Positions 60,282 through 60,832 of a stretch of DNA of 64,000 nt are shown here, piece by piece. Each line of letters begins with the position of its first letter. Position 1 is the first letter of the stretch. The stretch is from IMG/VR virus record IMGVR_UViG_2861069343_000001; one strand, 5' to 3'. Under the pieces are notes generated by a model. That model did not search any database and was not told the DNA's origin. It saw only the letters and a list, made by a program, of their open reading frames with translations. Source of the DNA: a virus. Taxonomy: Duplodnaviria; Heunggongvirae; Uroviricota; Caudoviricetes. The position numbers and the translations under genes were made by a program.

Positions 60282-60298
60282 TCTGCTCTAATAAATTT
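60282..60298 (+). promoter_or_regulatory. C1 operator-like site upstream of c4 promoter
   Basis: TCTGCTCTAATAAATTT, 15/17. Confidence 0.5.
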
Positions 60299-60336
60299 GT
60301 ATTTTTAAGTCGCGAATGCTATCTTTTCGCATCATA

Positions 60337-60365
60337 TTGACCTTTTAATCGTTCAGGCTTATAGT
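60337..60365 (+). promoter_or_regulatory. sigma70-like promoter for c4-icd-ant operon
   Basis: TTGACC - 17 bp - TATAGT. Confidence 0.5.
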
Positions 60366-60479
60366 TCCGCCGTCGTAGCAAATTCTGCGACCGGGTTTAG
60401 CAGCCTGAATACTTACGCGGACAACCGCAGATTTCCGATATTGCGGTATTTTTGTGTCCGTAAACCACGTTACGCCCGA

Positions 60480-60560
60480 ATTATGGTGGGGCGTGATGGG
60501 GAGGCTTCGGCCTGCTGGTTTCGTAAGTGCCAGTCTGCTAACCCCGTCACGTCCTGCCAC
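60480..60560 (+). ncRNA. c4: c4 antisense immunity RNA (approximate bounds)
   Basis: CGTAAGT and CTGCTAAC are antiparallel-complementary to GTTTAGCAG...ACTTACG upstream (60395-60417) and in the icd leader (60564-60596). Confidence 0.45.
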
Positions 60561-60610
60561 CTGTTTAGCAGCGGGTCGCAGGTTGTTTATCAACTTACGA
60601 GGCCGTAACT

Positions 60611-60832
60611 ATGGTTAATGCCAATCCTTGCGCACGCCAAGAATTCATCTGGCGTTTCTATTCCTGTAAAAAACACCACTATCACTTCGTTATCGCAGCA
60701 ACAGAAGACGAAGCACGCTCTCAATTGCCTGATGGCCCCTGCATTTTTACTGCCCGTTTTTCAACTAACTCGCGCAATTCACTTAGTTACTGGAGCCTCC
60801 CCTTCTCTGCCGACGTTCAGGGGGGTTTATGA
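60611..60832 (+). CDS. icd: Icd (interference with cell division)
   Basis: 73-aa ORF whose stop overlaps ant start. Confidence 0.6.
   Translation: MVNANPCARQEFIWRFYSCKKHHYHFVIAATEDEARSQLPDGPCIFTARFSTNSRNSLSYWSLPFSADVQGGL

Follow-up and report, generated by a model that had tools for sequence, protein, structure and literature searches.

The region at positions 60282-60832 of the window (the whole 64,000-nt stretch of DNA that was analysed) is almost certainly the head of the immI operon of a P1-like phage-plasmid (Punavirus) and carries the c4 antisense-RNA switch of that operon. In P1-like phage-plasmids this switch keeps the antirepressor silent in lysogeny. The c4 switch of the window is the textbook P1/P7 immI circuit, which is already known; it is intact and ordinary, and as far as the mechanism is concerned the locus brings nothing new. 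The sole point that goes past the textbook is the identity of the recognition alleles, which form a P7-a/D6-b pair, one among many natural combinations. A preliminary description of this DNA had recognized a c4 antisense RNA architecture and supported the assignment of a non-coding RNA to the region. This proposal is upheld by the Rfam matches, the collinearity with the immI operons of P1 and P7, the predicted RNA fold and the covariation observed across relatives. Transcription, processing and repression at the locus would all be as in P1 and P7, from which they are carried over.

The region 60282-60832 shows 100% identity to P1-like plasmids of E. coli (e.g. pCARB35_01), 99.8% to Salmonella phage SJ46, 95.5% to phage P7 and 94.4% to phage P1. 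The E. coli genome collection contains 121 records which are at least 99% identical to it, nearly all of them plasmids. Moreover, the adjoining 24 kb (window 40000-64000) is 92-96% covered, at approximately 97% identity, by complete P1-like phage genomes. This cover, together with the close matches of 60282-60832, therefore identifies the window as a P1-like phage-plasmid (Punavirus). The exact sequence of the region is already present in public phage and plasmid records, where c4 is often unannotated.

Gene by gene, the locus is collinear with annotated P1 (operator, two promoters, a1, b1, c4, a2, b2, icd, ant1/ant2) and also with the annotated P7 immI operon. From the operator up to and including a2, the alignment of the P1 record with the window is gap-free; the sole gap is found between a2 and b2, where the window lacks 1 nt. 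All of the features described below are located on the + strand unless stated otherwise. The C1 repressor operator (TCTGCTCTAATAAATTT, corresponding to Oc4, formerly Op51, of P1) occupies 60282-60298, the position of the annotated operators of the collinear P1 and P7 loci, and overlaps the promoter P2c4 (formerly P51a; 60297-60325), whose position was taken from the P1 annotation (614-642 of the P1 locus record). The second promoter, P1c4 (formerly P51b; 60337-60365), has the form TTGACC-17-TATAGT and is identical to the annotated P1 promoter. The c4-a1b1 leader motif (60359-60411, placed by Rfam RF03163) is composed of two hairpins, the second of which holds a1 in its loop. The a1 target element TTAGCAG (60397-60403) is homologous to the “putative a1 target site” of P1, and the b1 target element ACTTACG (60411-60417) to the P1 b1 site. 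The mature c4 antisense RNA (77 nt; 60485-60561, corresponding to the misc_RNA c4 at 802-878 of the P1 locus record) contains (i) the b' recognition loop CGTAAGT (60522-60528), a D6-type allele that is the reverse complement of b1 and b2, and (ii) the a' recognition segment CTGCTAA (60535-60541), a P7-type allele that is the reverse complement of a1 and a2. The a2 target element TTAGCAG (60565-60571), homologous to the P1 a2 site, begins 4 nt past the 3' end of c4, and the b2 target element ACTTACG (60593-60599) runs into the Shine-Dalgarno sequence of icd (GAGG, 60599-60602).

The icd open reading frame (60611-60832, with an ATG at 60611) encodes a 73-aa cell-division inhibitor, identical to P1 Icd at 70 of 73 positions (96%); a Pfam search with the icd product matched no family. 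The stop codon of icd overlaps the start of ant1 (ATGA). The latter gene (60829-61863) encodes a 344-aa antirepressor with a Pfam ANT/KilAC domain (E = 1.3e-30) and is collinear with ant1/ant2 of P1 and P7; an internal, in-frame ant2 start (ATG) at 61078 is preceded by AGGAGG. Downstream of ant1 there is a KilA-N/ANT gene and an ORF in the repL position, as in P1. Upstream of immI, on the opposite strand, we noted a 173-aa lipoprotein-like ORF (59479-60000, -) with a weak TraT Pfam match below the cut-off. The same gene is present at this place in P7 (upf50.5) and SJ46, whereas P1 carries simABC there.

The near-consensus promoter of the preliminary description corresponds to P1c4; its hexamers TTGACC (60337-60342) and TATAGT (60360-60365), separated by a 17-nt spacer, match the consensus at 10 of 12 positions and form the best sigma-70-like site in 59800-61200. 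The P51a sequence, which was missed by the consensus promoter scan of the same interval, is identical to that of P1 in the alignment. As for the C1 operator at 60282-60298, it agrees with the consensus ATTGCTCTAATAAATTT at 15 of 17 positions (2 mismatches), and C1-operator-like 17-mers (up to 3 mismatches to ATTGCTCTAATAAATTT) occur 13 times in the 64-kb window, compared with 0.22 expected. Such sites are found at 25833-25849 (-) and at 61941-61957 (+), in addition to 11 others; the site at 61941-61957 has 1 mismatch and is placed approximately 70 nt upstream of the KilA-N/ANT ORF (62027-62827). The terminator scan predicted no intrinsic terminator on the + strand of 59800-61200, which is consistent with the factor-dependent termination reported for P1. 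In that phage, Biere et al. reportedly observed in 1992 that blocking of icd translation leads to Rho-dependent termination ahead of ant.

The recognition elements themselves were examined in relation to their earlier description. The first target copy, GTTTAGCAGC...ACTTACG, is located at 60395-60417, exactly as had been given. The second copy, previously placed at 60564-60596, is also present, and its true span is 60563-60599, so that the start had been set off by 1 nt and the end by 3 nt. Its position just before the icd ribosome-binding site was correctly perceived, since b2 abuts the GAGG at 60599-60602, with the ATG at 60611. The antiparallel complement reported between the two copies was found as CGTAAGT (60522-60528) and CTGCTAA(C) (60535-60541, or 60542 with the final C). 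Exact complementarity comprises 7 + 7 nt, in which TTAGCAG pairs with CTGCTAA; the G that ends GTTTAGCAGC and the final C of CTGCTAAC lie outside any one continuous duplex. The a' and b' segments are exactly complementary to a2 and b2, which are located just upstream of the icd ribosome-binding site and overlap it. When both strands of the 64-kb window were scanned for TTAGCAG-N6-25-ACTTACG, 3 matches were obtained (60397-60417 and 60565-60599 on the + strand, and the reverse complement at 60522-60541), against a mean of 0.01 in 100 dinucleotide-preserving shuffles, none of which (0/100) reached 3 matches. The reverse composite pattern gave 2 matches, compared with 0.00 expected. The three-fold composite element is not a product of chance.

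Two Rfam families, which are the only gathering-level matches in the 64-kb window, fall within the locus. The C4 antisense RNA (RF01695), whose mapping elsewhere the preliminary description had named as evidence against its own proposal, lies at 60479-60564 (+), with a score of 70.8 bits (gathering cut-off 45) and a match to positions 1-87 of the 87-position model. The family “a1, b1 targets of C4 antisense RNA” (RF03163) lies at 60359-60411 (+), with a full-length match of 56.2 bits (cut-off 46.7; E = 1.6e-11). The ends of c4, which the preliminary description could not set, follow from homology to the mapped 77-nt c4 of P1 and would be 60485 and 60561; the sequence of the window at both P1-mapped ends is identical to that of P1. 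Folding of 60485-60561, a check suggested in the same description, yielded a minimum free energy (MFE) of -45.7 kcal/mol, while shuffled sequences averaged -28.4 kcal/mol (z = -5.19; 0/200 shuffles were as stable). The MFE structure is the same as the centroid structure and agrees with the Rfam consensus. A long closing stem surrounds a UUCG hairpin and a second hairpin; the 9-nt loop of the latter contains b' (CGUAAGU), and a' (CUGCUAA) occupies the 7-nt single-stranded junction that connects this hairpin to the stem. The predicted fold thus leaves both recognition segments exposed.

By analogy with P1, the operon would be read as a single transcript from P51a (under the C1 operator) and the constitutive P51b, containing, in this order, the a1/b1 leader, c4, a2/b2, icd and ant1/ant2. 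The 77-nt c4 RNA would be cut out of this transcript, as described in the P1 literature. Hartmann et al. are said to have shown in 1995 that the 5' end of c4 is made by RNase P in both P1 and P7. The released RNA would offer two 7-nt segments (b' in the loop of a hairpin, a' in an unpaired junction), and these would pair with a2/b2, b2 running into the icd Shine-Dalgarno sequence, with the result that translation of icd would be blocked, as in P1 and P7. As ant relies on icd translation for its expression, the antirepressor would remain off and C1-mediated lysogeny would be kept. In P1 and P7, c4 is a trans-acting antisense RNA which represses Ant synthesis, full repression of ant requires c4 besides C1, and the expression of icd and ant is interdependent (PMC8198154; PMC8546580). 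Both of these papers cite Citron & Schuster 1990 and 1992 and Heinrich et al. 1994. In the literature cited in PMC8198154 and PMC8546580, c4 is identified as a 77-nt RNA processed from a transcript.

The locus was then compared with those of its closest relatives. All annotated features of P1 immI have the same order and spacing in the window, and the promoters and c4 stems are identical. The difference concerns the recognition segments, since P1 has a' CTGTCAA and b' CACTAAC (CTGCTAA and CGTAAGT, respectively, in the window), all targets being changed to match. P7, which is heteroimmune to P1, shares with the window the a allele (CTGCTAA/TTAGCAG) as well as the upstream upf50.5-like lipoprotein gene, whereas its b' (CACAATC) differs from CGTAAGT at 4 of 7 positions. 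Phage D6 has the b allele of the window (CGTAAGT/ACTTACG) and also the TATCA just upstream of b2, but it differs in carrying a P1-type a allele, unrelated sequence upstream of the promoter and a Roi-like downstream antirepressor. SJ46 and the E. coli P1-like plasmids (pCARB35_01) contain the same a(P7)/b(D6) pair, with no difference of substance.

In an alignment of seven named phages, the a element was either TTGACAG (P1) or TTAGCAG (P7), and the b element was GTTAGTG (P1), GATTGTG (P7) or ACTTACG (D6). P1 carries its own a and b alleles, P7 and RCS47 carry the P7 alleles of both, JL22 combines the P1 a allele with the P7 b allele, D6 combines the P1 a allele with the D6 b allele, and the window and SJ46 combine the P7 a allele with the D6 b allele. 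In all seven, a1 is identical to a2 and both are complementary to a'; the same relation links b1 and b2 to b'.

This comparison was extended to IMG/VR by scanning for an exact 25-nt c4 core, which gave at least 120 loci, a sample that is redundant and biased by the requirement for the exact core. All six elements could be parsed in 112 of the loci listed, and 111 of these 112 were fully self-consistent. Among the 112 loci listed there were at least 11 a/b combinations, built from 2 a alleles and 6 b alleles, and the combination found in the window was the second commonest (16/112). The only mismatched set among the 112 loci listed was that of L047 (IMGVR_UViG_2565956613_000015), a 4.9-kb contig in which the locus lies approximately 120-270 nt from one end. 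Here, the b' of c4 is CATTCGT and b1 is ACGAATG, yet b2 is of the P1 type (GTTAGTG). Either recombination, with de-repression of icd/ant, or a chimeric assembly could account for this set. Two divergent c4 loci with unrelated flanks contain further alleles, again in self-consistent sets: L109 has b' CTTGAAC with GTTCAAG at both b1 and b2, and L067 has a' CGACTAA with TTAGTCG at both a1 and a2. The self-consistency of these two loci indicates that the three-copy design reaches past close P1 relatives.

Linkage contributes to this agreement of alleles, all of the elements being located within approximately 200 nt. The order of the elements in the DNA is a1-b1-b'-a'-a2-b2, so the P7-a/D6-b mosaic switches parentage three times within this short distance. 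The occurrence of matched sets despite such alternating parentage would be predicted by selection on pairing, and it argues against linkage alone. We also observed that the D6-type b2 brings its own upstream flank (TATCA, compared with AAACCTG), which suggests that this allele may have been acquired by patchy recombination rather than by point mutation.

To what extent do these alleles define the specificity of the switch? Duplex energies, computed on isolated recognition segments, were -14.4 kcal/mol for the b' of the window with its own b2 (11 pairs, extending into the Shine-Dalgarno sequence), compared with -4.2 kcal/mol with the b2 of P1 and -5.0 kcal/mol with that of P7. Cognate b'/b2 pairs ranged from -14.4 to -15.1 kcal/mol and cross-duplexes from -4.2 to -5.0 kcal/mol. 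Cofolding of whole c4 with its targets was abandoned as a measure, since it gave interaction energies of approximately 0 throughout; loop-to-strand (kissing) pairs are beyond the reach of the algorithm unless c4 is opened. On the basis of the duplex energies, the element of the window is predicted to be blind to the c4 of P1, i.e. immI-heteroimmune to P1. Its cross-reaction with the c4 of P7 should be at most partial, through the shared a element only. We are inclined, with some reserve, to consider the a(P7)/b(D6) pair as an immI immunity type functionally distinct from those of P1 and P7. On this view, P1-like phage-plasmids would use a two-site antisense “address code” for superinfection immunity, in which 2 a alleles and 6 b alleles occur in at least 11 natural combinations, this pair among them, and in which a1/b1 would be under the same selection as the functional target a2/b2.

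The upstream a1/b1 copy is a known feature, described as “putative” in the P1 annotation and having its own Rfam family (RF03163). Its near-perfect covariation with c4 argues that a1/b1 may well be functional, with its complementarity kept by selection. Alternatively, rather than being a second target in trans, this copy might act in cis, by pairing with a'/b' in the unprocessed transcript and so masking c4 until processing, which we regard as improbable. The MFE structure of the window precursor (60372-60625) does pair a1/b1 with a'/b' (-105.2 kcal/mol, compared with -99.2 kcal/mol for the modular fold), with an ensemble probability of 0.65-0.69, and the covariation of a1/b1 with a'/b' in 111 of the 112 parsed loci among those listed would fit such pairing as well. 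However, cis pairing had a probability of 0.00 in precursors of P1, P7 or JL22 type and, apart from CACAAGT (approximately 0.4), with the remaining b alleles; it was appreciable only with the D6-type b allele (0.65-0.85) and with CACAAGT. The prediction is thus allele-specific and therefore not conserved in the family, for which reason it was given low weight. In addition, the Rfam a1b1 model places a1 in a local hairpin loop, the geometry expected for a trans-pairing site.

Another explanation, which we consider very unlikely, is that the locus is a relic on a defective P1-like plasmid, in which the c4 architecture has been kept and the regulation lost. Many E. coli P1-like plasmids are indeed rearranged or lack modules (PMC6906374). 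In the window, however, every component is intact and in collinear order (the operator, both promoters, c4, the four target elements, icd, ant1/ant2, kilA and repL), and the three copies of the composite element are perfectly complementary. Furthermore, many independent plasmids carry the locus at 100% identity and SJ46 carries it at 99.8%, and window 40000-64000 is covered to 92-96%, at approximately 97% identity, by complete P1-like phage genomes.

The possibility that the c4 region encodes a small protein repressor instead of an RNA, which was the view of c4 held before 1990, can practically be dismissed. Open frames do overlap c4 (60441-60608, +, 55 aa; 60454-60618, +, 54 aa; 60345-60593, -, 82 aa), GenBank X15639 lists “c4: CDS”, and phage JL22 has a hypothetical protein over c4 (gp42, 729-899 of the locus record), but the overlapping frames all begin with TTG or GTG and are mechanical ORFs only, the region matches two Rfam covariance models, and the literature (references in PMC8198154 and PMC8546580) identifies c4 as a 77-nt RNA. 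In addition, the variation among relatives is concentrated in two 7-nt recognition segments, and complementary changes accompany it at two further sites, which is the signature of RNA pairing and not of coding.

It should also be noted that the public annotation of the c4 locus is inconsistent, with a protein CDS over c4 in some records and no feature in others. The records most similar to the window (SJ46 and pCARB35_01) are without a c4 feature. For annotation, the present analysis therefore places a real regulatory RNA gene which is absent from the closest public records (SJ46 and the RefSeq P1-like plasmids).

To conclude, the recognition alleles of the c4 switch would predict whether or not a given resident P1-like plasmid silences the antirepressor of a relative that enters its host. 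Such a prediction is relevant to how P1-like phage-plasmids, which are often carriers of resistance genes, coexist and spread.
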